Source of the DNA: Bacillota bacterium
GTDB taxonomy: Bacteria; Bacillota; Dehalobacteriia; UBA4068; UBA4997
Direction: 5' to 3'
NCBI GenBank assembly: GCA_021771915.1
Contig: JAETNY010000009.1
Coordinates: 40,038-104,037, forward strand
Length of the DNA stretch: 64,000 nucleotides
Positions within the stretch are counted from its first letter, which is position 1. Each line of letters begins with the position of its first letter. The notes under the pieces are model-generated. The model saw nothing but the letters and a program-made list of their open reading frames with translations, searched no databases and had not been told where the DNA came from. Shown in pieces: positions 3,066 through 38,010 of the stretch. Both the position numbers and the translations under genes were made by a program.

Positions 3066-4240
3066 TTATTTTGCTACGTTTTCGCAAAATCGCATCAACA
3101 TCATAGCCACTTCGGCGCGCGTGGCATTGCCGGCCGGCTTCAACGCGCCGTTATCGCCATTGATAATACCTGCGCCAACTGCCCATTGCATGGCTTCCTG
3201 CGCCCAATCAGAAACACTGCCGCTGTCGCTGAAATTGCTCAAAGAACCTTTAACGCTAACATCATAACCTTTAAACTGCGCAAAACGATACAGAACCGCC
3301 GCCAGCTGCTCACGCGTTATCATATCGTTCGGGGCAAACGTGCCGTCTTTATAACCATTAACCACGCCGTTGGCCGCCGCCCAGGCAATCGCTTCGCTGA
3401 ACCACTGACCAGAAGCCACATCGCTGAAATCAGCCGCGCCGGCTTTCGGCTCACCCTCCAGGCGGAAAAGCATAGTTACCAGCATCGCCCGGGTAGTCGT
3501 GGCGTCAGGCTCAAACTTGCCTGCGTCCGTGCCGTTCATCATGCCTTTGTTGTAAACATAAGCAATCGCTTCGGAATACCAGGCGTTATTCTGCACGTCG
3601 GCAAACTTATTGTTAACATTCGCCGCCGTTACCGTCTTATTGTTGTCGATTGTTGTACCAGGTTTATTTGTGTCGCCCGGTTTTTCGGTAGTACCCGGTT
3701 TGGTAGTGGTGGTGCCGCTCGGCCGGCTGCTGCCGCCATGACTGCCACCGCCGCCATTATACTGCCAGATTGCATAAACAGTTGTATCCGCCGTAAAAGT
3801 ATAAACATCATTGGCTTTCACTTTGTTTTCGCTGTCTTTGTCGCCGATTGCCCAAGCAGTCAGAGTATAGCGGCTCTTGGTCGCCGTGGGCATTTTGTAT
3901 GTTTCGCCTTTGATTACATAATCAGGGTTGGTGATACCCTCCGCCAGAGTGCCGCCGTCAGTATCAAAGGTAATAGTGTAAACCTTATCCGCCGTAACCG
4001 TTACTGCGCAAGTCGCTTTTTTATCACCGGCTGTGGCGGTGATTATGGCCGCGCCCTTGCCAACAGCCGTAACCTTGCCGTCTTTATCCACCGTGGCAAC
4101 CTTTGCGTTGCTACTGATAAACATGATATTTTTGTTAGTGGCGTTTGCCGGGGCAACTGTGGCGGTCAGTGTTGCTGTGCCGCCAACTTCCAAATTCAAT
4201 GCGGTTTTATCCAGAGTTACGCCAGTAACTGGAATATTTG
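3066..4240. repeat. Shared C-terminal module (Big_2 + List_Bact repeat + linker + 3 SLH), copy A; diverged inverted paralog of 57900..59055
   Basis: Protein-level identity is near-colinear over about 390 aa. Nucleotide identity is roughly 80% by eye. Confidence 0.8.
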
Positions 4241-6125
4241 TTGGCTGTTCTGGCATAGTGCTGTTATAATGAATTTGTACGTTTTCAGGTACATTACTTT
4301 CCGCATTTTTAATTTTTAACCAGTCTTCCTCTGTGCCCTCATAATACATATCTGTTAGGTTTTTTGCCCATACAAACATGGTTTCAGGAAAAGCACATTC
4401 CACAACGCTTTTTGGTATATAGATTTCGTTTAAAGCATCAGCCATAAAAGCACTTTCGATAATAAATACGCTATCAGGAACAACGTAAATTTTGTTTGTA
4501 TTTGCATCAAAATATTGAATTAAAGTAGTTTTATCTTTGTCAAATAAGACCCCATTTTCTATACAATAATTATCATTATTGGTATTTAATAAAACTTCCG
4601 TTAATTTAGGACAACCAGACAAGGCACCAATATAAATTTTTTCAACACTTGCCGGAATTGAAACACTAACAAGATTGTTGCAACCATTAAAACAAAAATC
4701 ACCTATTTCAAGTAAACCCTCCGGTAAAATTATTTTAGTCAAATTTTCCTTGTCTGTAAATGCAAATGGAGCAATATATTTTACAGCAGTTCCCTTAATT
4801 TCCGACGGAATATCAGCAACCGTAACGCCAACATCACAACCTGTTATAGTATTGGTTGCTTTAATAAAATAAATATTGCCTCCCACAACAGGATATAATA
4901 ATTCAGGCTCAGGATAATCTGTATAATCATAAGAATAGCCAAATAAATCATCTAATGAATAACCGCTTTTAGATAATAGTGTGCTTAATTCTTTTTCACT
5001 GCCCTCATAAGTTATATCCAGATTACTGTTAGTATCCAAGGACTGTAAACCAATACTTTTTATGCCTTTGTGCATAGTCAAATATCTTAAATTGCTGCAA
5101 TTATAAAATACATGATTGCCTATTTGGGTTACAGGTACATCATCAATACTTTTAGGTATAACAACAGAAGTAACAGTATCATCACAGCCAACTATAATAC
5201 CTGTTGCTTTATCAAAATACATATATCCACCAGATACTGCAACTTTTTCATATGATGAGAAATCTTCACTCGCAAAAGAAATATTGACATTTTTCAAAAC
5301 ATCATCAACCGTGTCCATCACATTTATTTTTGCCCATTCTGCTCGAGAACCTAAATAATTAATATTTTTTAAATCAGATGCAGCAAATGCAGAACCATAA
5401 ATTCTGGTAATAGTTGCTGGCACAGTAATATCAGCCAGCTTATAACAATTTGCAAATACACTTCTTGAAAAGCCCATAAATCCTTCAGGGAAATTAATAT
5501 TTTCTAAATTTCTACAATCATAAAATGCAGATTGATTAATCATTGTACAAGAGATTGGTAATTTAACACTGGTTAATTGATTACATCTATTAAATGCATC
5601 ATGATTTATGGTTGTTACAGTGTCTGGAACTGCATATATTCCTGTTTTACCTATTGGACATCTTAACAAAATAGTTTTATCTTTATTAAATAAAACACCA
5701 TTTTCAGTAGAAAAATCAGAATTTGAGGAGGATACCATAATTTCTTTTAACTTAGGACACCCTGAAAAAACACCACTGACCTCATTTCCCCCAATGCTAT
5801 TTACAGTAGCAGGTATGCTAACCATATAGAGATTATCGCAACCAGCAAAGGCATTTTTACCAATAACTTTTACACCATTATAAACCGTAACAACTGTAAT
5901 ATCGTCACGATATGCGGCCCAAGGTTGCGTTTCTAATGTATAATCTGGCATTGCCGCATTAATTTGTCCCTCATATTTGTAAATTTCCAGATTGCCCTCA
6001 CTGTTTAACTGCCAACTTATGTCTCCGGATAGACCACTGGCAACAGTGGCCGCCCAGGCCGCAGGCGCCATACTTAGCGCCAGCAAAAATGCCAGCGCCA
6101 GCACGGCAAAAATTTTCTTTTTCAT
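3066..6125 (-). CDS. Cell-surface protein with BspA-type leucine-rich repeats, a Big_2 domain, a Listeria-Bacteroides repeat, a G/S/T/P linker and three SLH domains
   Basis: 1019 aa with a signal peptide (MKKKIFAVLALAFLLALSMAPAAWA). The LRR_5-like repeats are AT-rich (roughly 4300-5900). The C-terminal 390 aa, including the SLH motifs FADVQNNAWYSEAIAYVYNKGMMNG.., is paralogous to the 56725..59055 protein. Confidence 0.85.
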   Translation of the reverse strand: MKKKIFAVLALAFLLALSMAPAAWAATVASGLSGDISWQLNSEGNLEIYKYEGQINAAMPDYTLETQPWAAYRDDITVVTVYNGVKVIGKNAFAGCDNLYMVSIPATVNSIGGNEVSGVFSGCPKLKEIMVSSSNSDFSTENGVLFNKDKTILLRCPIGKTGIYAVPDTVTTINHDAFNRCNQLTSVKLPISCTMINQSAFYDCRNLENINFPEGFMGFSRSVFANCYKLADITVPATITRIYGSAFAASDLKNINYLGSRAEWAKINVMDTVDDVLKNVNISFASEDFSSYEKVAVSGGYMYFDKATGIIVGCDDTVTSVVIPKSIDDVPVTQIGNHVFYNCSNLRYLTMHKGIKSIGLQSLDTNSNLDITYEGSEKELSTLLSKSGYSLDDLFGYSYDYTDYPEPELLYPVVGGNIYFIKATNTITGCDVGVTVADIPSEIKGTAVKYIAPFAFTDKENLTKIILPEGLLEIGDFCFNGCNNLVSVSIPASVEKIYIGALSGCPKLTEVLLNTNNDNYCIENGVLFDKDKTTLIQYFDANTNKIYVVPDSVFIIESAFMADALNEIYIPKSVVECAFPETMFVWAKNLTDMYYEGTEEDWLKIKNAESNVPENVQIHYNSTMPEQPTNIPVTGVTLDKTALNLEVGGTATLTATVAPANATNKNIMFISSNAKVATVDKDGKVTAVGKGAAIITATAGDKKATCAVTVTADKVYTITFDTDGGTLAEGITNPDYVIKGETYKMPTATKSRYTLTAWAIGDKDSENKVKANDVYTFTADTTVYAIWQYNGGGGSHGGSSRPSGTTTTKPGTTEKPGDTNKPGTTIDNNKTVTAANVNNKFADVQNNAWYSEAIAYVYNKGMMNGTDAGKFEPDATTTRAMLVTMLFRLEGEPKAGAADFSDVASGQWFSEAIAWAAANGVVNGYKDGTFAPNDMITREQLAAVLYRFAQFKGYDVSVKGSLSNFSDSGSVSDWAQEAMQWAVGAGIINGDNGALKPAGNATRAEVAMMLMRFCENVAK

Positions 6126-8686: not shown

Positions 8687-9745
8687 ATGTCTAGTATTAA
8701 TGTTATCGACCTTTTTTGTGGTTGCGGCGGCCTGTCTTTCGGATTTTCAAAGGCTGGTTATAATATCCTGCTTGGAATTGATAATGACGCCAAAGCACTG
8801 GAAACATTTAAATTAAATCACCTTAATGCAAAAGCAATTTGCAGTGATATTACCCAAATATCATACCAAAAAGATATTAAACCATTAATAGAACCATGCC
8901 AAATAGATGTGATTATTGGCGGCCCTCCCTGTCAGGGTATGTCCTTATCCGGCCCCAGAAAATTCGATGACCCAAGAAATTCCTTATATTTATCTTATAT
9001 CAGACTGGTTAAAGAAATTCAACCTAAAGCTTTTGTTATTGAAAACGTACCTGGTCTAACCAGTCTTTTTGGCGGACAGATAAAAGATAATATAATTGAA
9101 CAGTTTAGCCAAATCGGCTATCATGTGCAGTATAAAATCCTTTGCGCATCAGACTATGGAGTGCCACAAAGCAGACGCAGAGTATTTTTCATCGGACTAA
9201 AATCCGGCAGCTTCACTTATCCACAGCCAACTGATAATGTTGTTACTTGCAGCATGGCTCTGAATGACCTGCCCAGTTTAATCAGCGAGTTGGGCGATGA
9301 AATAATGGCCTATGCAACAGAACCGCAAAACGATTATCAAAAACAAATGCGAAAACATTCAAAAAGTGTACAGAACCACATTGCTGCTAATCATACAGAC
9401 AAAGTACGCAAAATAATCTCTTTGGTTCCTGACGGCGGAAATTATAAAGATTTGCCGGAAGAATACAAAACAAGTAGAAATTTTCATATTGCCTGGACAC
9501 GATTTGACAGCAACAAGCCCGCACCTACTATTGATACCGGGCATCGTCATCATTTTCATTACAAATATAACCGGGTTCCAACTGTAAGAGAATGTGCAAG
9601 ATTGCAGTCTTTTCCAGATAATTTTATTTTTCTGGGTAATAAAACTCAACAGTTCAGACAGGTTGGCAATGCCGTGCCGCCACTTTTAGCGCAAAGAATT
9701 GCTGAACAATTAAAGAAATCATTGGAGAATGAAATAAATGGCTGA
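8687..9745 (+). CDS. DNA (cytosine-5)-methyltransferase, M1 of a restriction-modification cassette
   Basis: Motif I FCGCGGLSFGF, motif IV GGPPCQGMS, motif VI ENV, motif VIII RRRVFFIG, motif X QVGNAVPPLLA. The region is AT-rich relative to its flanks. Confidence 0.9.
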   Translation: MSSINVIDLFCGCGGLSFGFSKAGYNILLGIDNDAKALETFKLNHLNAKAICSDITQISYQKDIKPLIEPCQIDVIIGGPPCQGMSLSGPRKFDDPRNSLYLSYIRLVKEIQPKAFVIENVPGLTSLFGGQIKDNIIEQFSQIGYHVQYKILCASDYGVPQSRRRVFFIGLKSGSFTYPQPTDNVVTCSMALNDLPSLISELGDEIMAYATEPQNDYQKQMRKHSKSVQNHIAANHTDKVRKIISLVPDGGNYKDLPEEYKTSRNFHIAWTRFDSNKPAPTIDTGHRHHFHYKYNRVPTVRECARLQSFPDNFIFLGNKTQQFRQVGNAVPPLLAQRIAEQLKKSLENEING

Positions 9746-11201
9746 ATATAAAATTCCCGAAGAATATTATTTCAGATTACACCATGTCCGCCCACGTTTT
9801 AAGAGTGATATTGAAAATGTCTTAATTTATATGGCGGAAGAAATTACTTCAATAGGACAAAAACCAACCCAGGAGTTTGTCAGGCTTATTAATTCAGCCG
9901 TTTTCAGATATCCCGGCAATGCGCATAGCACACTTAAAACTATAAATAATTGGCGCACTGAAATATCTGCTTTATTTGGTTTTATTGAACATGATGAATT
10001 AACCTGCAAACCCGGCAGGCGTGCTGTTGAATTAGCAACAAACCAGGATTTGGTAGAAGCCTTTAAGGTTTTTTTATATAACTTTCAATATCCAGGCGCT
10101 CATATTAAACCACACCGCATTTTAGAACAAATTAATGCCGGTATTCATTTTAAACCGGCGCAATATATATTACGTTTGCTAAAACACGCTAATAAAAACA
10201 GCCAAAACGCGGTTGGTTTAACAAAGTTTGAGGTTTGTCACTGCATTTTCAACGATTTAAGAGTAACCCGTGATAATGAAGGCGTTGAAAACACCTGGCA
10301 GAGAATAAAACTAAATCGCCAAAATAATTTAGAATACGACCAAACAGGCGATGTGATAAGATATGCCGGCGATATTGTTGACTACATGGAAAAAGCCAAT
10401 TTGTTAAAAACATATGACAACCGTACATATTATCTTAATATGCAGGAGAAAACAATTATCAACCAATTCTGCCAATCAACAGAATGGTTTGACGGTTATG
10501 ACCATATGCTGCAAAATCGTGCCGGCAATAAGACCAGTATTAAGGAACAAACAAATGCCTGGTTTGAATATGTAAACAGGGATATTGAAAATATTGATTT
10601 TTCAACAAACATTTTTGCATACATTGAATATAACCCAACAAAACTGCAACAATTACAAGCAGGCACTGGCAATATAACAAAAGGTTCTTTTAAAACTCTT
10701 ATAAAACGTGAAGCGGAATTGAATAAACGCATTGCTGTTGGTGAAGATGAACTTACGGCTAAGGATATCGGCGATATCGGCGAACAGCTGATACATGGCC
10801 ATGAATGTATGAGAATGAAGCTGGGCAACAGAGAAGATTTAATACATCTAATAAAATTGATACCAACACAATTTGCAGTTGGCTACGATATAAATTCTGT
10901 CGAATTAAATGAACTGAAAAGATTTATTGAAGTAAAAACAACAATTAGCGCTAAGCCATTGCATTTTACTAAAATACATTTGACCAGAAACGAATGGAAT
11001 ACAGCCAGAAGTACCCATGATCGTTACTATATTTATCGGCTGATGTTAAGTAAAACTGAACGCAAATTATTTTTGTTGCAAGACCCAGTTGGCTTATACG
11101 AAAAGAAGTTAATAGAAATTGCTTATAATGACGGAATAGATATTATATTTAACCCCAAAACAGCAGGAAAGTATGAGGAATTGCTTACATGGCAAAATTA
11201 A
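9738..11201 (+). CDS. Putative restriction endonuclease: novel N-terminal region plus a C-terminal DUF3883-like PD-(D/E)xK nuclease domain
   Basis: Translationally coupled between the two C5-methyltransferases, with 8-nt and 13-nt overlaps. The C-terminus reads DIGDIGEQLIHGHE...GYDI...ELKRFIEVKTT...YYIYRL, i.e. a D...E-x-K core. Confidence 0.55.
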   Translation: MAEYKIPEEYYFRLHHVRPRFKSDIENVLIYMAEEITSIGQKPTQEFVRLINSAVFRYPGNAHSTLKTINNWRTEISALFGFIEHDELTCKPGRRAVELATNQDLVEAFKVFLYNFQYPGAHIKPHRILEQINAGIHFKPAQYILRLLKHANKNSQNAVGLTKFEVCHCIFNDLRVTRDNEGVENTWQRIKLNRQNNLEYDQTGDVIRYAGDIVDYMEKANLLKTYDNRTYYLNMQEKTIINQFCQSTEWFDGYDHMLQNRAGNKTSIKEQTNAWFEYVNRDIENIDFSTNIFAYIEYNPTKLQQLQAGTGNITKGSFKTLIKREAELNKRIAVGEDELTAKDIGDIGEQLIHGHECMRMKLGNREDLIHLIKLIPTQFAVGYDINSVELNELKRFIEVKTTISAKPLHFTKIHLTRNEWNTARSTHDRYYIYRLMLSKTERKLFLLQDPVGLYEKKLIEIAYNDGIDIIFNPKTAGKYEELLTWQN

Positions 11202-12166
11202 GAGTTGCATCACTATTTTGTGGCTGCGGCGGAACTGATGTTGGTTTGCTTGGCGGTTTTGATTTTATAGGTAAACATTATGCAAATAATAATATAGAAA
11301 TTGTTTATGCCAACGATATAAACGATAATGCCTGTAAATTATTTGAAGCAAACTTCAATCTCAAACCAGATAATAGGGATATCAGAAAAGTACAGTGTAC
11401 AGAACTGCCGGAATTTGATATATTAACCGGCGGCTTTCCCTGCCAATCTTTCTCTATCGTTGCTCAAAACCCAAAACGCTTAGGCGTTAATGATGAAAAA
11501 GGAAAACTCTTTTTTGAAATGTGCCGTATCCTTAAAGAAACAAAACCCAAATGTTTTGTGGCTGAAAATGTTAAAGGAATTTTAACAGCTAATAAAAAAA
11601 GTGCATTTCCCTTAATTTTGCAGGAATTTGCGGAAAGTGGCTATGACTTGCAATATGCTATTTTAAATGCCGCGGATTTTGGCGTGCCACAAAAAAGAGA
11701 ACGTGTAATAATCGTTGGCTTTCGTAAAGATTTGAATATCAGATTTAAGTTTCCGACAGTTCCTATTACTAACGAAACTGAATATGTGCCTCTGAAAAAG
11801 GTATTGGAAAAACATGTGCCAGAAAAATACTATTTCAGCGCTAAAGCGGTTCAGGGAATGTTAAAAAACCGGGAAAGTATGAACAAAGGACGCGCGCAGG
11901 ATATTACAAAACCATGTAATACAGTTGGCGCGCATTTGGCCAAGGTATCGCTTAACAGCACAGACCCCGTTTTATTTGAAAACAACAGATATCGACGCTT
12001 TACACCAAGAGAAGTTGCCAGAATTCAGTCTTTTCCTGAAGAATATAAATTAACTTGCAGTGAAACCGCTCAATATCAGGCGCTGGGCAATGCAATACCA
12101 CCTGTTATGTTCTGGTATGTTGCACAGGCAATAAGCCGACATTTAACCAAAAAAGCATCAATCTAA
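11189..12166 (+). CDS. DNA (cytosine-5)-methyltransferase, M2 of the cassette
   Basis: FCGCGGTDVGL (motif I), GGFPCQSFS (motif IV), ENVKGIL (motif VI), RERVIIVGF (motif VIII), ALGNAIPPVM (motif X). Confidence 0.9.
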   Translation: MAKLRVASLFCGCGGTDVGLLGGFDFIGKHYANNNIEIVYANDINDNACKLFEANFNLKPDNRDIRKVQCTELPEFDILTGGFPCQSFSIVAQNPKRLGVNDEKGKLFFEMCRILKETKPKCFVAENVKGILTANKKSAFPLILQEFAESGYDLQYAILNAADFGVPQKRERVIIVGFRKDLNIRFKFPTVPITNETEYVPLKKVLEKHVPEKYYFSAKAVQGMLKNRESMNKGRAQDITKPCNTVGAHLAKVSLNSTDPVLFENNRYRRFTPREVARIQSFPEEYKLTCSETAQYQALGNAIPPVMFWYVAQAISRHLTKKASI

Positions 12167-21435: not shown

Positions 21436-21523
21436 GCGGATGTGGCGGAATTGGCAGACGCGCTAGATTCAGGTTCTAGTGAGGGTTAACTTCGTGGGGG
21501 TTCAAGTCCCTTCATCCGCACCA
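21436..21523 (+). tRNA. tRNA-Leu (anticodon CAG), with a long variable arm and an encoded CCA
   Basis: GCGGATG acceptor stem. Anticodon stem ctaga/tctag with loop ttCAGgt. T-arm GGTTCAAGTCC. 88 nt. Confidence 0.9.
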
Positions 21524-21781: not shown

Positions 21782-23404
21782 ATGGATAAACAAAAACTGC
21801 AAGCCCTGCTTCAGGAACTGGAAACCTGGCATGAAAACAATGAATTTTCCAAAATCATCATGGCTATAAACGCTGTGCCAGAGGCAGAACGGTCTTATGA
21901 CTTAACCTGTCTGCTGGCCAGAGCCTATAACAATCTGGCCGTTATGGGTGATAATATGTCTTTAACCTCCAGCGAGGAACGTCGGCCAAAGCTGCTGGAA
22001 AAAGCCCTGAACCTGCTGCAATCAGTGGAAGATGAAGGTCAGAACGACAAAAACTGGCATTTTCGCAAGGGCTATGCGCTTTATTTTCTGGATAAGGAAG
22101 CGGAAGCGCTGGCCTGCTTTGAACGCTCGGCCGAGTTGAATCCTGACGACCCGGACACAGAATATTTTATTCAGGAATGTAAAAAAATTCTGGAACAACA
22201 AAATTTTGCTCCCATTGTTTATGCCCAAGAGGATTGGAATGTGGTTGAGGAACATATCAATTATTATTTCGGCGAGTATCACAATGTTTTTCATGAGTTG
22301 GTTTCGCCGGATATTCACGTTGATATTTGTATTATCCCACCCGATGACGAGCGCAATTATTTTACGCTGGTAACAATGGGTATGGGCGCGCATTTAATGA
22401 ACGTGCCGCAAGAGTTGGCGGAAAACAAACTGGAGCGCGCCGAATTAATGCTGGCGCTGCCGCCCACCTGGCAGCTGGATAAGGACTCACTGCAAGATGA
22501 ACGCTGGTATTGGCCTATTCGGCTGCTGAAAAGTTCCGCCAGGCTCCCAATCACCAATAATACCTGGCTGGGCTGGGGACATACTATCGGCCTGAATGAA
22601 GACGATTTTTATGCAGATAACACGCGCTTTTGCGGTGTGATTTTAACCTGCCCCCTGGGCTGCCCGGAGGGCTCGGAGTATTGTACCCTGCCCGGTGGCG
22701 ATGACGTTAATTTTTATCAGCTAACGCCACTTTATGCTGAAGAAATTGAATATAAATGCGCCAAAGGCGCTGAAGCGCTGCTTGATTTAATGGCGGCGGC
22801 GGAAATGGACTTTGTGGTGGATATTAACCGCCCCAACGTGCTGACCGACCAGGTTTGGCCGGAGCCGGATTATAACAAAATTATCGGCTATGGCGATTTG
22901 CTGATGGACAGCGCTATCAGTCATTTGCAGTCTATTCACCAAAAAGAACTGCCTGTGCGGCCGTTGGCGGCCTATAATCATCTGGCTATTTATTTGCGCT
23001 GGTGCATCGAGCATGACCTTTTAAGCGACCTGTTTAAACGTAAATATCACCGCACCGTTAAGGCGGTTTGGCAAAACATTGAGCAGCCGCAATATATTCC
23101 CGATTTACGCCTGTTACTGCGCGGCGACCGCGATTTAAACGGCAGTCTGTTGTTAACCTATTTTAACGGTACCGGTGCGGCTTTTGGCCGTTGGTATTAC
23201 GGTGACGGACTGGATAAAAGTCATTATTATCCCTGTGATGTAGACGACCATGCCCGGGATTATTTTGGCGAGGAACGCTACAACAGCGCCGAATTTCAAG
23301 ATGAAGCCTATCTTTTCGTTCCCTGGTCAGAGGAGTATTATCAGGCTATGGCCAAACGAATTGACGCGCAGTTTGCGCATTGGCAAACACTGGAAGATGA
23401 ATAA
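21782..23404 (+). CDS. SUFU (suppressor-of-fused)-domain protein with an N-terminal TPR-like region and a C-terminal domain of unknown function; putative polymorphic-toxin immunity protein
   Basis: AAAGGAGAA Shine-Dalgarno before the ATG at 21782. The central region reads NYFTLVTMGMGAHLMNVP..RAELMLALPPTWQL..WYWPIRLLK..TWLGWGHTIG..FCGVILTCP, which matches the bacterial SUFU family as recalled. Confidence 0.55.
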   Translation: MDKQKLQALLQELETWHENNEFSKIIMAINAVPEAERSYDLTCLLARAYNNLAVMGDNMSLTSSEERRPKLLEKALNLLQSVEDEGQNDKNWHFRKGYALYFLDKEAEALACFERSAELNPDDPDTEYFIQECKKILEQQNFAPIVYAQEDWNVVEEHINYYFGEYHNVFHELVSPDIHVDICIIPPDDERNYFTLVTMGMGAHLMNVPQELAENKLERAELMLALPPTWQLDKDSLQDERWYWPIRLLKSSARLPITNNTWLGWGHTIGLNEDDFYADNTRFCGVILTCPLGCPEGSEYCTLPGGDDVNFYQLTPLYAEEIEYKCAKGAEALLDLMAAAEMDFVVDINRPNVLTDQVWPEPDYNKIIGYGDLLMDSAISHLQSIHQKELPVRPLAAYNHLAIYLRWCIEHDLLSDLFKRKYHRTVKAVWQNIEQPQYIPDLRLLLRGDRDLNGSLLLTYFNGTGAAFGRWYYGDGLDKSHYYPCDVDDHARDYFGEERYNSAEFQDEAYLFVPWSEEYYQAMAKRIDAQFAHWQTLEDE

Positions 23405-23431
23405 TTTTATATTATAAAAGGAAGTTTAACC

Positions 23432-23707
23432 ATGGTACCGGAAAAAGCACAGAAAAAATTTGCCGCCAGATATGCAAATCAGGTGCAAGAACTGCTGGTT
23501 TTAACCGCTGAGGGTGTACGCGGCGCCGCCAAATGGGGCGACGGTCTTTGGGAACCAAGCTGTCGGCTACTGGCTTATATAGATTTGGCCGATAACAGTC
23601 TGCACGGTGGATTAAATCAGCCGGAAAGCGTAATGTTCTTTGGTCATTCCATTTTGGTGGAGGGCAACATTAACGGTGAATTAAGCGACGCTTATCTGGC
23701 CGGTTAA
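23432..23707 (+). CDS. Hypothetical small protein (91 aa)
   Basis: ORF with a GGAAG Shine-Dalgarno. No recognisable motif. Confidence 0.35.
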   Translation: MVPEKAQKKFAARYANQVQELLVLTAEGVRGAAKWGDGLWEPSCRLLAYIDLADNSLHGGLNQPESVMFFGHSILVEGNINGELSDAYLAG

Positions 23708-23957
23708 CCTAATATCCATACAGCCTTAAATTGCATATATTCAGTATTTATTTACGTTTTTTTAAGTATTTATCTGAACATACCTATTGATTTTTGACCT
23801 ATTCTGTAATAAAATAGATGTATAGTTTTTTATGAACATAATTAAGTGAATATTGTCAGGTAAAATAAAATGCCAACAGGCTTATATTTTCGCTTAAGTT
23901 CGGTTCCTGACACCATAGGGGTGCTGTTTTAAACCAGGCAAAGGGAGAGTTGTTGCC

Positions 23958-26048
23958 ATGAGCAATAAACAGAAGGTTCTGATTGTGGACGATTCAGAAA
24001 TGAACCGTTCCATTTTGGCGGATATTCTGGGCGATAAATATGAAATAATTGAAGCTGAAAACGGCGTGCAGGCCGTGGCCACTATCCAGAAGTATGGCGC
24101 AGAACTTTCTGTGGTGCTTCTGGATATGGTTATGCCCAAAATGGACGGTTTTGGTGTGTTGGATATGATGAACCAACACCATTGGATTGATGAAATCCCA
24201 GTGATTATGATTTCCGCCGAAAGTTCCTCCTCTTATGTGGAGCGTGCTTATGATATGGGCGTTACCGATTTTATCAGCCGCCCCTTTGACGCGCTGATTG
24301 TCCGCCGGCGCGTTATCAACACCATTTTGCTTTATGCCAAGCAGAAAAAGCTTACCAGCCTTTTGGCTGACCAGCTGCTACAAAAGGAAGAACGCAGCAA
24401 TTTGATGGTGGACATTTTAAGCCACATTGTAGAATTTCGTAACGGTGAGAGCGGCATGCATGTTATTCACGTCCGCCTGATTACCGAGCTTTTGCTGAAC
24501 CATTTAATGCATAAGGTTGAACGCTACAATGATTTGACCCATGAAGACTTGGATATGATTAGCATGGCCTCCGCCCTGCATGATATTGGCAAAATATCCA
24601 TTGATGAAGCAATTTTGAACAAACCCGGCCGGCTGACCGATGAAGAATTTGCGATTATGAAGACCCATGCTCTGATTGGCGCGCAAATGCTCTCAGAAAT
24701 GCCTTATAAAGATAATAAGCTTATCCAGACAGCTTATGAAATTTGCCGCTGGCACCATGAGCGTTATGACGGCAGCGGTTATCCCGATGGTCTGAAAGGC
24801 GATGAAATTCCGATTTCCGCCCAGATTGTGGCAATGGCCGATGTTTATGACGCTCTGACCAGTGAGCGCGTTTATAAAAAAGCCCTGCCGCATGAAACTG
24901 CTGTGCAGATGATTATAGATGACAAATGCGGCGTCTTTAACCCGGAATTAAAAGAATGTTTGCTTGATGTGGCCGAAACAATCCGCAGCACACTGGCTTC
25001 CGACGTGGTGGCCTTAAACCAGAAGCGAGCTTCTCAGAACGCAGTGGCGGAGATGTTGCGCAACAATGAAACCAGCGCTTCAGAGCGCACATTGCGGCTG
25101 CTGGAAAAAGAAAGAGAGAAATATAAATTCTTCGCTGCGCTAACTAAGGAAATTCAGGTTGAATATAATCCTGACCCACCCACGCTGACGCTCTCCCCCT
25201 GGGGCGCGCAAAAGCTTGGACTGGACGAAATTATCATGGACCCTCAGAATAATGAGCAGGTTCTGACTGTGACCGGCGCGGAAAATTGGCAGAAGATAAC
25301 TGAACTGCTGTTAAACTCCACACCAGAGCAGCCGATGATTAAATATGACTGCAAGATGTTTTATAATGGAGAGTTGCGTTGGCATCAGGTTATTGCTCGC
25401 GCCATGTGGCAGCAGGAGGACGAACCAATCTTTCAGGGCGCTATTGGCAAGGTTATTGATATTCATGATTCCAAACAGCGTCTGGCAGAGTTGGAGCGCA
25501 AGGCCAATCATGACTCCTTAACAGGTCTGCTGAACCATGCCAGCGCCAAAAAACATATCATTGAAAGTCTGGAAGGACACCCACACGACAAATATGCACT
25601 GATTATTTTTGACCTGGACCATTTCAAAAATGCCAACGATACCTATGGCCATATTTTTGGCGATGAGGTTTTAAAGCTGGAAGCGCAAAAGTTAAAAGGC
25701 AGCTTGCGCGCCGGCGATATTGCCGCCCGTATTGGTGGTGATGAATTTTTAATCTTCCTTCGTTATACAGATGAGGTTGAGCCAATTATTGAGCGTATTT
25801 TTAAAACATTGATTGGCCGGCATGAAGATTTTGAATTTACGGTAAGCATGGGCATAGTGCAAACTGAGTTTGCGGATAATGATTATGAAACACTTTTCCA
25901 TTGCGCCGACCAGGCGCTTTATGCGGCCAAACGCGGTGGCCGCGGACGCTATTGCTTTTATAGAGATGATTTGCCGGATACTATTCATAATAAAGCAAAA
26001 TCATCTCTTTCCAAGATTGAAAGCAACGACCCAAACCGTGAATGTTAA
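23958..26048 (+). CDS. Response regulator with REC + HD-GYP phosphodiesterase + GGDEF diguanylate cyclase domains
   Basis: REC reads VLIVDDSEMNRSIL...LLDMVMPKMDG. HD-GYP reads HVIHV..ALHDIGK..HHERYDGSGYP. GGDEF reads RIGGDEFLIFL. Confidence 0.85.
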   Translation: MSNKQKVLIVDDSEMNRSILADILGDKYEIIEAENGVQAVATIQKYGAELSVVLLDMVMPKMDGFGVLDMMNQHHWIDEIPVIMISAESSSSYVERAYDMGVTDFISRPFDALIVRRRVINTILLYAKQKKLTSLLADQLLQKEERSNLMVDILSHIVEFRNGESGMHVIHVRLITELLLNHLMHKVERYNDLTHEDLDMISMASALHDIGKISIDEAILNKPGRLTDEEFAIMKTHALIGAQMLSEMPYKDNKLIQTAYEICRWHHERYDGSGYPDGLKGDEIPISAQIVAMADVYDALTSERVYKKALPHETAVQMIIDDKCGVFNPELKECLLDVAETIRSTLASDVVALNQKRASQNAVAEMLRNNETSASERTLRLLEKEREKYKFFAALTKEIQVEYNPDPPTLTLSPWGAQKLGLDEIIMDPQNNEQVLTVTGAENWQKITELLLNSTPEQPMIKYDCKMFYNGELRWHQVIARAMWQQEDEPIFQGAIGKVIDIHDSKQRLAELERKANHDSLTGLLNHASAKKHIIESLEGHPHDKYALIIFDLDHFKNANDTYGHIFGDEVLKLEAQKLKGSLRAGDIAARIGGDEFLIFLRYTDEVEPIIERIFKTLIGRHEDFEFTVSMGIVQTEFADNDYETLFHCADQALYAAKRGGRGRYCFYRDDLPDTIHNKAKSSLSKIESNDPNREC

Positions 26049-26080
26049 AAATCTGAACATATATTAAGGAGGTTATTCTT

Positions 26081-26434
26081 ATGACTTTAGAAGAATGTTA
26101 TGTCGCTTTGGAAGGCAGTTATGCCGACGCCATAAGCAGACTGCGCAGTGAAAAGCTGGTGCGCAAGTTTGCCTTAAAATTTCTGAATGACGGCAGCTAT
26201 CAGCTTTTGCAGGACTCTCTGGCCAAAGAGGATTATGCGGAGGCTTTTCGTGCTGCCCATACTATTAAAGGCGTTTGCCAAAATCTGGCCTTTGATAAGC
26301 TGGGTAATTCCAGCGAGCATTTAACGGAGTCTTTGCGCAATGGCTGGAGTGACGCCGCGCCGGCTCTGATTGAGCAGGTTAAAGCGGATTATCAGCAGAC
26401 GATTGCCGCCCTGAACGACCTGGACCCGGAATAA
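26081..26434 (+). CDS. Hpt (histidine phosphotransfer) domain protein
   Basis: 117 aa with the AAHTIKGVCQNLAF phospho-histidine motif. Confidence 0.8.
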   Translation: MTLEECYVALEGSYADAISRLRSEKLVRKFALKFLNDGSYQLLQDSLAKEDYAEAFRAAHTIKGVCQNLAFDKLGNSSEHLTESLRNGWSDAAPALIEQVKADYQQTIAALNDLDPE

Positions 26435-26511
26435 TCCATCTGCTTTATAATAACGCTGGGGTTAAACGTGTCCATAAACTTTAACCAAAACGTGAAGGAG
26501 TTTTTATATCT

Positions 26512-29070
26512 GTGCATAACCTTAATTTAAAAAATAAAAACACCATTTTAATACTTTTCAGTATTTTACTGGGGTCTATTACGATTGCGGTATTCTTATA
26601 TCTGGCCTTTTGGGTACGCAGCCAAACCACCGAAACCATAAACAATGTTGGCAATATGTATATGGACGGACTGAATGAACGCATTACAAGACACTTCAGC
26701 ACAACTATGGATTATCGTTTCGCCCAGCTGGAAGAAATCATTGAGGAAACCCCAGATGAATACAGTAACAGCGTTAACCAGATACATAGTTACCTGGCAA
26801 ACTCAGCTATACGTCATGATTTTAATGAATTAACGCTTTGCGGCGCTGATGGCTGGCAAGATTCTATATATGGTAATGGTATAACCATGTATGCCGAAGA
26901 ACTGTTTGTGGAGGCGCTTACGGACGGCGACCGATGGGTGGCCACCGGTTTTGATACAAGCGGCAATTCAATCCTGCTTATGGGTATTCCGGCACAATTT
27001 CCCATGCAGGACGGCACTCTCAGCAGCGGCCTGATAGTTGGCATGCCCCTTGATTACATGACCCAGGTTCTGGAGGCCAGTGATACTCTGGCTTCATCGC
27101 ATATTATCCGCAAAGACGGCTCATATGTTCTGCGCAGTGATGGCAGCACCGCCAATACTTTCCGGGAACGCCTGATAGAACTTTACTCCCCACAGGATAT
27201 TGAACAGATTGAACTTGCCAATACCCAAGCTCTGGCCGCCATGCAGAAAAATGAAAATTATTCTGTCATGCTAACCCTGAATGAAACGCGTGAGCATTGG
27301 TATTTTACCAGACTGCCCTATTCCAACTGGTATCTTACCACCAGAATGCCTTTTGGCACTTTAGACCAGGCTGTAAACATGCTTACCCGTTCCACTCTAT
27401 ATGCAGCGCTTTTTGGTTGCCTTATCCTGCTTGTTGGTTTACTTATTCTGTTTATTTTCTTTAATAATATGACCAAAACTCAGCTGCTGGCGCTTAATCG
27501 GGCCCGAAAAGAAGCTGAAAGAGCCAACAAAGCCAAAAGTGAATTTTTATCCAGCATGAGCCATGATATCCGCACCCCCATGAATGCAATCGTGGGTATG
27601 ACGGCGATTGCCGCTGCTAACATTGATAACCGCATGCAGCTGGAAAACTGCCTGAACAAAATTACCCTTTCCAGCAAGCATTTGCTGGGGCTTATCAATG
27701 ACGTTCTGGATATGAGCAAGATTGAAAGCGGCAAGCTGACCATGAATATCGACCAGGTTTCCCTGCGTGAGGTTATGGACAGTATCGTCAGCATTGTACA
27801 GCCGCAGGTTCACGCAAAAAATCAGACTTTCAACGTTAGTATTCACGATATTGACACTGAAAATGTCTGCTGCGATGGCGTGCGTCTGAACCAGGTTTTA
27901 ATCAACCTGCTTTCCAATGCCATTAAATTTACACCAGAAAAAGGCACAATCTCACTGGCATTGCATGAAGAAGCATCTCCCAAAGGCGAAAATTTTGTGC
28001 GTATCAATCTGGAGGTTAAAGATACTGGCTATGGTATGTCGCCAGAATTTACCGAACGCATTTTTGATTCATTCTCCCGGGAGAATACAGACCGTGTTCA
28101 CAAAACAGAAGGCACAGGTTTGGGCATGTCTATTACCAAATATATTATTGATACTATGGGCGGCACTATCAGCCTGGAAAGTAAACAAGGCGTTGGCACC
28201 ACTTTCTATGTAACGCTTGATTTGGAAAAAGCCAGCATTCAGGAAACCGATATGAAACTGCCGAACTGGCATATGCTGCTGGTTGACGACGACCCCATGC
28301 TTTGCAAAAGCGTTATCGCCGCTTTAAAAGATATTGGCGTGCAGGCAGAAAGCGTTTTGGACGGCGAAAGTGCTATCAAGCTGGTTAAAAAGCGCCATGA
28401 CGAAAACAATGATTTCCAGATTATCCTTTTAGACTGGAAGCTGCCCGGCATTAACGGCATTGACGCCGCTAAGGAAATACGTCGGCAAACCGGCGAGGAA
28501 ATTCCAATTCTGCTGATATCAGCCTACGACTGGACGGATATTGAAGAAGATGCACGCACTGCCGGCATCAACGGCTTTATTTGTAAACCACTCTTTAAGT
28601 CCACTCTTTATTACGGTTTGCGTCCCTATGCCAATGACCCAGACGATAAAAAGCAGACCAAGCTTAAGAAAACAACTCGTGACTTTACTGGCAAAAAGAT
28701 TTTGCTGGCCGAGGATAATGACCTTAACTGGGAAATTGCTGAAACACTGCTTTCTGAGGAGGGGCTGGAGTTGGATTGGGCTGAAAATGGTCAGGTTTGT
28801 GTAGAGGTTTTCCAGCAATCCGATGTTGGTTATTATGACGCTATCTTAATGGATATCAGAATGCCGGTTATGAACGGCTATGACGCCGCCAAAACCATAC
28901 GCAGTCTGGAACGCCCAGACGCGGCGGAAATCCCGATTATCGCCATGACTGCGGACGCCTTTGCGGAAGATATTCAGCGCTGTCTGGACGTTGGCATGAA
29001 CGCTCATATCGCCAAACCGATTGATATACATGACGTTCTGGTTCAACTGGACAAATACATGAAACCATAA
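26512..29070 (+). CDS. Hybrid sensor histidine kinase: transmembrane + extracytoplasmic sensor, HisKA, HATPase and two C-terminal REC domains
   Basis: GTG start with a GAAGGAG Shine-Dalgarno. H-box HDIRTPMNAIVGM. G-box GTGLGMSI. REC motifs LLVDDDPM..LLDWKLPGINGID and ILLAEDND..LMDIRMPVMNGYD. Confidence 0.85.
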   Translation: MHNLNLKNKNTILILFSILLGSITIAVFLYLAFWVRSQTTETINNVGNMYMDGLNERITRHFSTTMDYRFAQLEEIIEETPDEYSNSVNQIHSYLANSAIRHDFNELTLCGADGWQDSIYGNGITMYAEELFVEALTDGDRWVATGFDTSGNSILLMGIPAQFPMQDGTLSSGLIVGMPLDYMTQVLEASDTLASSHIIRKDGSYVLRSDGSTANTFRERLIELYSPQDIEQIELANTQALAAMQKNENYSVMLTLNETREHWYFTRLPYSNWYLTTRMPFGTLDQAVNMLTRSTLYAALFGCLILLVGLLILFIFFNNMTKTQLLALNRARKEAERANKAKSEFLSSMSHDIRTPMNAIVGMTAIAAANIDNRMQLENCLNKITLSSKHLLGLINDVLDMSKIESGKLTMNIDQVSLREVMDSIVSIVQPQVHAKNQTFNVSIHDIDTENVCCDGVRLNQVLINLLSNAIKFTPEKGTISLALHEEASPKGENFVRINLEVKDTGYGMSPEFTERIFDSFSRENTDRVHKTEGTGLGMSITKYIIDTMGGTISLESKQGVGTTFYVTLDLEKASIQETDMKLPNWHMLLVDDDPMLCKSVIAALKDIGVQAESVLDGESAIKLVKKRHDENNDFQIILLDWKLPGINGIDAAKEIRRQTGEEIPILLISAYDWTDIEEDARTAGINGFICKPLFKSTLYYGLRPYANDPDDKKQTKLKKTTRDFTGKKILLAEDNDLNWEIAETLLSEEGLELDWAENGQVCVEVFQQSDVGYYDAILMDIRMPVMNGYDAAKTIRSLERPDAAEIPIIAMTADAFAEDIQRCLDVGMNAHIAKPIDIHDVLVQLDKYMKP

Positions 29071-29078
29071 TAAATCAA

Positions 29079-29116
29079 ACAGCCCCCTCCGCAAAAGAGG
29101 GGGCTGTTATTTTTTC
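29079..29116. terminator. Bidirectional Rho-independent terminator
   Basis: acagccccctc-cgcaaaa-gagggggctgt, flanked by A- and T-runs. Confidence 0.75.
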
Positions 29117-37516: not shown

Positions 37517-37731
37517 AATATGACAATTTAAGCTTTGGCAGCGGTTAAAAGATTTTTTTATTTTTGTCAACTTTACAGAAAAAACCCTTGACTTTAATCA
37601 GGCATAGTGCTATACTGAAACAAGTATTCAAGATAATAGCTTATTACGCGCAATAAACCAGAAGTTGATTGATTTGGCGATATTTGTTCATTTTCTATGG
37701 GTACGAAAATTTTTGACAGGAGGTACCCAAA

Positions 37732-37947
37732 ATGAATAACGGTACAGTAAAATGGTTCAACGCAGAAAAAGGATTCGGTTTCATTGCTAATGATGAAGGC
37801 GGCGATGACGTTTTCGTACATTTCTCTGCCATTCAGACTGACGGCTATCGCACTCTGGACGAGGGACAGAAAGTTACTTTTGAAGTTGAAGCTGACCCAA
37901 AAAACCCCAGCAAACTGCGCGCAGCTAATGTTTGCAAAGTTGGCTAA
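37732..37947 (+). CDS. Cold-shock protein (CspA family)
   Basis: [35 protein letters not shown]. Confidence 0.95.
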
Positions 37948-37974
37948 ACCAGCTATTTAATTAAACAAAATACA

Positions 37975-38010
37975 AAGGAACTGTTGAAAATCTTCAACAG
38001 TTCCTTTTTT
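37975..38010 (+). terminator. Rho-independent terminator after csp
   Basis: aaggaactgttgaa-aatc-ttcaacagttcctt followed by TTTTTT. Confidence 0.8.

Follow-up and report, generated by a model that had tools for sequence, protein, structure and literature searches.

A conserved three-gene locus of gut Clostridia predicted to form a phosphorelay ending on a bifunctional c-di-GMP enzyme

Does a compact gene cluster in a Bacillota bacterium encode a phosphorelay that controls the turnover of cyclic di-GMP (c-di-GMP)? The question is raised by three + strand open reading frames (ORFs), g1, g2 and g3, that occupy positions 23958-29070 of a 64,000-nucleotide (nt) stretch of contig JAETNY010000009.1 (this whole 64-kb stretch is referred to below as the window). 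An earlier note, made from the sequence alone, placed three genes at exactly these coordinates and read them as a REC-HD-GYP-GGDEF protein, a 117-residue Hpt protein and an 852-residue hybrid histidine kinase (HK) with an extracytoplasmic sensor and two C-terminal receivers, together forming a His-Asp-His-Asp relay. The ORFs match and Pfam annotation agrees with these domain assignments; we consider it reasonably probable that the three genes constitute one operon encoding a multi-step phosphorelay that ends on a bifunctional c-di-GMP enzyme.

Operon structure and conserved linkage

The first gene, g1 (23958..26048, + strand), encodes a 696-residue response regulator in which REC, HD-GYP, PAS-like and GGDEF domains follow one another, as seen from the ORF, Pfam, homologues and an alignment of 28 sequences (A1). 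It is followed by g2 (26081..26434, +), whose 117-residue product is a stand-alone Hpt protein, and by g3 (26512..29070, +), which starts with GTG and encodes the 852-residue hybrid kinase, described here from its ORF, Pfam, a second 28-sequence alignment (A2) and an AlphaFold2 (AF2) model. A Shine-Dalgarno sequence precedes every gene (GGGAGAG, AAGGAGG and GAAGGAG, respectively), the intergenic gaps are 32 nt (g1-g2) and 77 nt (g2-g3), and a scan found no terminator-like site within either. Eight nucleotides past the g3 stop begins a bidirectional intrinsic terminator (29078..29108), detected by scan and RNA folding, that has a GC-rich stem of 12-13 bp and T-runs on both strands; its hairpin folds with a free energy of -23.9 kcal/mol (z -5.66, 0/200 shuffles), and the genes downstream of it lie on the opposite strand. 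On the 5' side, a consensus scan places a candidate sigma-70-like promoter, TTGATT-17-TAAAAT (23787..23815, +), in the AT-rich 250-nt gap ahead of g1. Given a ribosome-binding site for each gene, terminator-free gaps and a strong hairpin past g3, co-transcription of g1-g2-g3 as one operon is well supported by these signals, in keeping with the compact cluster described in the note.

The identical trio, with the same g1 protein, is found on many gut metagenome contigs that have a different upstream flank, and the best genome match of g1 (99% identity) is a metagenome-assembled genome (MAG) labelled 'uncultured Peptococcaceae bacterium' (CANSKT010000002.1). Linkage was counted over 80 loci from different species, 57 of which have at least 3.5 kb on both sides. 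An Hpt gene lies no more than 300 nt from the g1 homologue, on the same strand, at 70 of the 80 loci (61 downstream, 9 upstream), and g1-Hpt is the tightest pair in the module. A two-REC hybrid kinase, aligned through both receivers, is present at 44 of the 80 loci (same strand in 42 of the 44) and at 35 of the 57 well-flanked ones; the order in these kinase-bearing loci is g1-Hpt-HK in 33 cases and HK-g1-Hpt in 11. The sensor domain of the window's g3 is shared by only 30 of these 44 adjacent kinases, while 14 carry non-homologous sensors. That the trio is kept despite changes of gene order and exchanges of sensor is good evidence of functional coupling, and the frequent Hpt gene, the two-REC kinase and the permuted order lend strong backing to the predicted His-Asp-His-Asp relay.

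Homologues of g1 number more than 8000 in databases, where they are named just 'diguanylate cyclase' or 'response regulator', and those in Oscillospiraceae and Lachnospiraceae are about 60% identical. The module is abundant in gut Clostridia, with carriers in Oscillibacter, Lawsonibacter, Lachnospiraceae, Christensenellaceae and some Coriobacteriia, and a g1 homologue occurs in an Adlercreutzia genome (L066). Cultured carriers, which include Christensenella intestinihominis, Pumilibacter intestinalis, Bacilliculturomica massiliensis and Lachnospiraceae bacterium 3-2, make experimental work feasible.

Active sites and inputs of the g1 protein

Residue conservation was counted with one genome per species in 81 orthologues of g1 (homologues down to 41% identity), 73 of g2 and 31 of g3; for g1, A1 and the 81-sequence set agree. 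Pfam places Response_reg at residues 7-112 of g1 (1e-22), HD_5/HD at 168-321 (8e-30 and 8e-17) and GGDEF at 516-663 (7e-37), and the motifs quoted in the earlier note (HD, HHERYDGSGYP and RIGGDEFLIF in g1, AAHTIKG in g2) are all found. The HD-GYP phosphodiesterase domain (residues ~150-340; 24405..24977, +) matches PmGH, a tri-iron enzyme (4mcw), with an E-value of 8e-37. In this alignment the eight ligands of the PmGH tri-metal site correspond to g1 E164, H168, H208, D209, H237, H266, H267 and D295, each of which is conserved in 81/81 orthologues; K212, E268 and G274-Y-P are likewise 81/81, and the HHExxDGxGYP motif is intact.

The GGDEF diguanylate cyclase domain (residues 512-668; 25491..25961, +) was aligned to PleD, and its residues were counted in the g1 homologues that have the domain (71-72 sequences). 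The Mg/GTP residues are in place, and conservation is 72/72 for D552, D554 and N560, 70/72 for K557 and D561 and 67/71 for D569. Within the motif itself, G593 is conserved in 70/71 and G594, E596 and F597 in 71/71, and position 595 has D in 69/71 and E in the other 2; the inhibitory site (I-site), R584xxD587, has its Arg in 67/71 and its Asp in 68/71. The alignments thus show the enzyme residues kept rather than degenerate, the HD-GYP set without exception and the GGDEF set near-invariantly. Judged from these residues, both c-di-GMP catalytic centres of g1 are intact, and the protein can probably both make and break c-di-GMP. Synthesis of cyclic GMP-AMP (cGAMP) by a Hypr-type GGDEF was considered and rejected: the base-specifying Asp, D569 (PleD D344), which we take to be the residue equivalent to the Hypr specificity position, is retained at the frequency given above, and a canonical c-di-GMP cyclase is therefore expected.

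Between the HD-GYP and GGDEF domains lies a fourth domain that the REC-HD-GYP-GGDEF description, right for the three domains it named, had missed. This PAS-like domain (residues ~397-503, about 105 residues; 25146..25466, +) is matched by no Pfam model. AF2 predicts it with a b-b-a-a-a-b-b-b order of strands and helices at a pLDDT of ~90, an order that suits a PAS domain, and a Foldseek search with the whole of g1 gave alignments of ~315 columns with 5xgb and 8c05, both PAS-GGDEF structures. A search of 1.84e9 representative proteins with the PAS-like domain (PAS* in what follows) returned 243 clusters at E<=1e-3, in which it always stands beside HD-GYP and/or GGDEF; the architectures are REC-HD-GYP-PAS*-GGDEF, REC-PAS*-GGDEF, PAS*-GGDEF, REC-HD-GYP-PAS* and close elaborations, and no others. 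This restriction to few clusters and architectures marks a small, dedicated PAS-like module that would act as the immediate input of the cyclase. Because it precedes GGDEF, the cyclase half probably has an input of its own and is not simply under REC control.

At 11 of the 80 loci the g1 homologue lacks GGDEF altogether, which bears on an alternative view of the protein: g1 would be essentially an RpfG-type phosphodiesterase whose GGDEF domain is a regulatory GTP/c-di-GMP-binding or dimerisation module that tunes HD-GYP and makes no c-di-GMP in vivo. In some GGDEF-EAL proteins the GGDEF domain does serve as a regulatory module and not as a cyclase. The existence of REC-HD-GYP-PAS* forms that keep an adjoining Hpt gene (those 11 loci and protein P0277), the invariance of the HD-GYP ligands and the conserved RxxD, which would permit c-di-GMP sensing, are all consistent with such a role. 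We judge it unlikely, however: wherever GGDEF is present, the GG(D/E)EF motif, both Mg-binding Asp residues, N560 and D569 are near-invariant, which is unexpected for a purely regulatory, degenerate GGDEF, and the PAS*-GGDEF and REC-PAS*-GGDEF relatives that have no HD-GYP imply a working cyclase unit.

The GGDEF-less members (~500-520 residues; loci L076-L085 and P0277) stop after the PAS-like domain. Nearly all keep the adjoining Hpt gene (at L081 it is 3.5 kb away), and at several of these loci the start of Hpt and the stop of the preceding gene overlap. One of the GGDEF-less members, at 52% identity, comes from a MAG labelled Alistipes (Bacteroidota; L084), where it sits on a scaffold of 1.49 Mb; this is far outside the Firmicutes/Actinobacteria range of the g1 family and reflects either horizontal transfer or an error in binning or assembly.

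The receiver of g1 (residues 5-120; 23970..24317, +) keeps D11, D12, D56 and S86 and has R108 where the conserved Lys is expected: its R108-P-F aligns with K-P-I in the 'FLTKPID' of the phosphorylatable D1 receiver of PleD, the position of CheY K109. The Arg is found in 81/81 orthologues, as are D56 and S/T at position 86, and D11 and D12 in 80-81/81. CheY with K109R, studied by Lukat and colleagues in 1991, was reportedly still phosphorylatable. A pseudo-receiver has been defined as a receiver missing any of five conserved active-site residues (PMC12632262, 2025); by this definition, and because the Lys is absent, the g1 receiver is formally a pseudo-receiver by sequence, though it retains its phospho-acceptor Asp and is not aspartate-less. 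According to the same source, the replacement seen most often at this position is Lys-to-Arg, and substitutions there need not abolish phosphorylation. HD-GYP-less relatives of the same receiver lineage mostly carry the 'RPF' signature, and a few have decayed further (D56 to G in P0252, D56 to E in P0279, K to P in P0251); unlike these, the Hpt-linked core g1 family keeps every acidic receiver residue. From this conservation we read the g1 receiver as still phosphorylated but with altered chemistry; Arg108 probably tunes this chemistry, for instance by slowing the transfer or lengthening the lifetime of the phosphoryl group, and probably does not abolish phosphorylation.

The invariant Arg, as the commonest K-position change in pseudo-receivers, and the decayed relatives would also suit a g1 receiver that is a true, unphosphorylated pseudo-receiver; the Hpt protein would then contact g1 without phosphotransfer, or serve some other regulator, and the PAS-like domain and protein contacts would set g1 activity. 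We regard this as quite unlikely, as the near-complete retention of the acidic residues and of S/T86 in the Hpt-linked family is difficult to account for if no phosphoryl chemistry takes place, most loci (70/80) have a dedicated Hpt gene next to g1, and a change at the Lys position is compatible with phosphorylation. Given the atypical R108 and the additional PAS-like input, the earlier proposal that opposing c-di-GMP activities are gated by phosphorylation is less certain than it was made to sound.

The Hpt protein, the hybrid kinase and the proposed relay

The 117-residue g2 protein is an Hpt protein (Pfam Hpt at 41-108, 2e-10) with its phospho-accepting histidine, H60, in AAHTIKG; H60, K63 and G64 of the HxxKG motif are conserved in 73/73 orthologues, and among solved structures the nearest relative is HptB of P. 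aeruginosa (7c1i, 6e-4). The g3 protein consists of a transmembrane (TM) segment, an extracytoplasmic sensor, a second TM segment, HisKA, HATPase and two REC domains, with Pfam matches to HisKA (341-407), HATPase_c (455-572) and two Response_reg stretches (2e-43). Hydropathy gives hydrophobic segments at 11-29 and 299-317, with seven Lys/Arg after the second; from the two TM segments and the positive charge past TM2, the ~265-residue stretch between them is therefore predicted to face outward, which agrees with the extracytoplasmic sensor given in the note. The AF2 model of this sensor (residues 34-298; 26611..27405, +) has a long helix extending from TM1, followed by alpha/beta modules at 88-188 and 195-280 and then TM2 (pLDDT 85-90), a layout suggestive of a double Cache domain. 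Pfam dCache_1 gives sub-threshold matches in 6/28 orthologues (best E 0.012), and the dCache domain of KinD (4jgo) a weak, collinear match (E 0.11); because this sequence evidence is sub-threshold, the fold call is tentative.

The kinase core (27532..28227, +), defined by Pfam and conservation, has H351 in the dimerisation and histidine phosphotransfer (DHp) domain and N469, the G1 box D504xGxG and the G2 box G534xGxG in the catalytic and ATP-binding (CA) domain. H351, N469, D504, G506, G508, G534 and G536 are conserved in 31/31 orthologues, as are the receiver aspartates D641 and D781, and G538 is invariant in A2. An AHK4-type plant receptor fragment (7p8e) is among the structures to which the cytoplasmic part aligns. 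The first receiver, REC1 (residues 587-706; 28270..28629, +; D592, D593, D641, S670, K692), is CheY-like, its best matches in the PDB being CheY proteins (3e-14), and at the second of its acidic positions, D593, 7/31 orthologues have N or S. The best PDB matches of REC2 (residues 729-849; 28696..29058, +; E734, D735, D781, T813, K835) are the receivers of ShkA, PA1611, AHK4/5, SLN1, RcsC and RpfC (5e-20), all from hybrid kinases that use Hpt proteins; E734, D735 and K835 do not vary among the 31 orthologues, and position 813 has T in 28 and S in 3 of them. Because the relatives of REC2 feed Hpt proteins and its acidic residues are invariant, whereas REC1 is CheY-like and varies at D593, REC2 (D781) is more likely to be the relay receiver and REC1 to be accessory.

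In the relay as we infer it, from each phosphotransfer and the choice of receiver to the direction of regulation and the two enzyme activities, g3 would sense an extracellular ligand through its double-Cache-like domain and autophosphorylate on H351. The phosphoryl group would pass from H351 to a C-terminal receiver, most likely D781 of REC2, with the CheY-like REC1 as a modulator or phosphate sink, then from REC2 to H60 of the stand-alone Hpt protein g2, and from there to D56 of the g1 receiver. Phosphorylation of g1 would switch on the adjacent HD-GYP phosphodiesterase, by analogy with REC-HD-GYP proteins of the RpfG family, whose c-di-GMP phosphodiesterase activity depends on REC phosphorylation (10.1101/2021.11.05.467447). 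Cyclase activity would come from the PAS-like-GGDEF half, governed by a PAS input of its own and by product inhibition at the I-site, so that the kinase signal would move g1 from net synthesis to net hydrolysis of c-di-GMP.

Several points weigh against the relay as drawn. R108 may make phosphorylation of g1 inefficient or prevent it; the assignment of the relay to REC2 over REC1 is made by similarity; the homologues without GGDEF (11/80) would make the cyclase half dispensable in some lineages; and the inter-domain geometry of the AF2 models of g1 and g3 is unreliable (pTM 0.37-0.38). Further, 22 of the 57 well-flanked loci have no adjacent two-REC kinase, and for this reason several kinases may feed the g1-Hpt pair, of which g3 need not be the sole or main partner. 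Carried further, this last point leads to a trio that is not a closed pathway at all: g1-Hpt would be a hub fed by several hybrid kinases, as HptB is in Pseudomonas, with g3 one input among them or mainly a phosphatase or sink. The non-homologous sensors of 14/44 adjacent kinases and the kinship of g2 with HptB point the same way. In the window, however, the kinase is co-oriented and 77 nt downstream with no terminator between, and the trio has been retained through permutation of gene order in many species. We consider the hub very unlikely as the explanation here, and it is compatible with the relay at this locus. A bolder extension of the relay, which we hold to be unlikely, is that the Lys-to-Arg receiver and the dedicated Hpt protein form a specialised phosphotransfer pair, insulated from acetyl phosphate or non-cognate kinases or giving a long-lived phospho-Asp, that switches a single REC-HD-GYP-PAS-GGDEF protein between synthesis and breakdown of c-di-GMP.

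Known relatives, genomic surroundings and meaning

The NCBIfam matches of the three proteins are partial, sub-cutoff similarities to the PleD, NosR-family phosphodiesterase, TorS, BarA and LuxQ equivalogs, and none of the three is therefore orthologous to a named, studied protein. With the RpfG family (RpfC/RpfG of Xanthomonas, TM0186, PA4781) the module shares an N-terminal receiver followed by a full HD-GYP domain and a hybrid kinase with Hpt chemistry, and REC2 of g3 resembles the RpfC receiver. It differs in that g1 adds the PAS-like-GGDEF half, and so is not a two-domain protein ending in HD-GYP, in the g1 receiver, which does not have the canonical DD, D, T/S, K quintet (Arg stands at the Lys position), and in its Hpt, which stands alone instead of being a domain of the kinase. 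Hybrids of HD-GYP and GGDEF were catalogued by Seshasayee et al. in 2010 (PMC2952852) as 74 proteins, 7% of HD-GYPs, nearly all with an intact GGDEF, often with PAS, and nearly all keeping both active sites. Like them, g1 has both domains, an intact GGDEF A-site and a PAS-type partner and is predicted to be bifunctional; that class is computationally defined, however, and the REC-HD-GYP-PAS-GGDEF order, the dedicated Hpt protein and the R108 receiver are not described there.

The cytoplasmic part of g3 resembles ShkA of the ShkA-ShpA-TacA pathway of Caulobacter: residues 344-838 of g3 are collinear with ShkA 4-471 (6qrj) through DHp-CA-REC1-REC2 (E ~1e-49), and both systems have a stand-alone Hpt protein and a connection to c-di-GMP. 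ShkA is cytosolic and sensorless, however, whereas g3 has a TM-bounded sensor; REC1 of ShkA is a c-di-GMP-binding pseudo-receiver locked by the DDR motif of the REC1-REC2 linker (defined in 10.1101/675454), whereas REC1 of g3 keeps D641; and c-di-GMP is an input in ShkA and the predicted output here. The DDR motif is absent from the aligned REC1-REC2 linker of g3 (...KLKKTTRD...). A ShkA-like c-di-GMP feedback on g3 was accordingly rejected: the architecture fits, but the motif is missing and REC1 is not a pseudo-receiver. In the HptB network of P. aeruginosa (PA1611 and other kinases, HptB, HsbR and the intersecting cyclase HsbD), a stand-alone Hpt protein likewise joins hybrid kinases to c-di-GMP, g2 has HptB as its best solved match and REC2 of g3 matches PA1611REC (7c1j); the terminal regulator HsbR is a REC-PP2C-kinase and the cyclase is a separate protein, whereas here the c-di-GMP enzyme itself bears the terminal receiver. 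Receiver-controlled GGDEF-EAL enzymes and PleD, WspR and DgcR are also c-di-GMP enzymes under phosphorylation control, and the GGDEF domain of g1 aligns with that of PleD including the I-site, but the hydrolase of g1 is HD-GYP, not EAL, and is placed between the receiver and the cyclase.

The system is built entirely from known parts, and it combines known themes. Its terminal receiver is on the predicted bifunctional enzyme itself and has an invariant Arg at the Lys position, and an Hpt protein of its own travels with it. Our literature search found no experimental paper on REC-HD-GYP-(PAS)-GGDEF proteins; the HD-GYP census 10.1101/2021.11.05.467447, which was accessible in part, may list the architecture.

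Nothing in the window points to a target of the module. No c-di-GMP riboswitch was found in the 64 kb with Rfam (at gathering score the matches are one tRNA and a cspA element), and a riboswitch or other leader RNA ahead of the operon was rejected, as 23400-24000 gave no match at E<=1. PilZ and flagellar genes were likewise not found in the window. The suggestion that the cluster is linked to the expression of surface proteins with SLH domains was rejected for this locus: the two SLH-anchored proteins of the window, one with BspA-type leucine-rich repeats, Big_2 and Flg_new (3066-6125, - strand) and one with Big_2 and Flg_new (56725-59055, +), lie 18 kb and 27 kb off behind gyrA/B, a restriction-modification island, a sigma/anti-sigma pair and other genes, no connection of either to the operon was found, and the flanks of the module vary between species. 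At 7 of the 80 loci, all in Oscillospiraceae (including Oscillibacter), the module directly adjoins the start of a flgB-flgC-fliE-fliF-fliG-fliH-fliI operon, with the operon upstream and divergent in five cases and following the kinase in two (the loci concerned are L011, L013, L015, L017, L020, L021, L026 and L087); because of this adjacency, the module may be tied to flagellar motility in Oscillospiraceae. One locus (L088) has a giant SLH/FctA adhesin beside the trio, an anecdotal case, and one locus of another species has a PilZ gene. These flagellar, adhesin and PilZ neighbours are leads and not evidence for the genome of the window.

Several features of the surroundings stand apart from the module. 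A 91-residue DUF7021 ORF (23432-23707, +) lies just 5' of the operon; it is a truncated form of a 280-residue DUF7021+DUF2262 gene that occupies the same place in contig L004, it measures 34 residues in contig L001, and the gene is variable or decaying. A tRNA gene (21436-21520, +) lies between an anti-sigma-like gene and a SUFU/DUF7832 gene. In metagenome contigs L002/L003, whose operon is identical, the SUFU gene is preceded by an integrative/mobilisable element (integrase, MobC, RepA_N, ArdC-like) instead of the gyrB-gyrA-sigma genes of the window, which suggests an insertion hotspot. A low-GC island at 8687-12166 (+; GC 0.34-0.36, compared with ~0.48) carries genes for a C5 cytosine methylase, a BpuJI-like restriction endonuclease with NOV_C and a second C5 methylase and is probably an acquired restriction-modification cassette. 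The Rfam cspA thermoregulator RF01766 matches 37613-38007 (+) over the full model (85.6 bits, gathering score 78) in a Clostridia-type-looking genome; the family is described for enterobacterial cspA mRNA, and the match may therefore be driven by conserved cold-shock coding sequence.

To our knowledge, c-di-GMP signalling has barely been explored in strictly anaerobic gut Clostridia. The c-di-GMP hydrolases of these bacteria are mostly of the HD-GYP type. In Adlercreutzia equolifaciens a single HD-GYP protein is the only c-di-GMP hydrolase, according to 10.1101/2021.11.05.467447, and in the bolder reading given above a g1-type protein could be the main or only controller of the c-di-GMP set point in small-genome gut anaerobes. 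If the relay works as we propose, it would be a compact, portable three-gene system through which a cue from outside the cell moves c-di-GMP in either direction. It would also offer a natural test case for Arg at the receiver Lys position in phosphotransfer, and a tractable HD-GYP/GGDEF bifunctional enzyme from a class that was predicted in 2010 and for which we found no characterised member.

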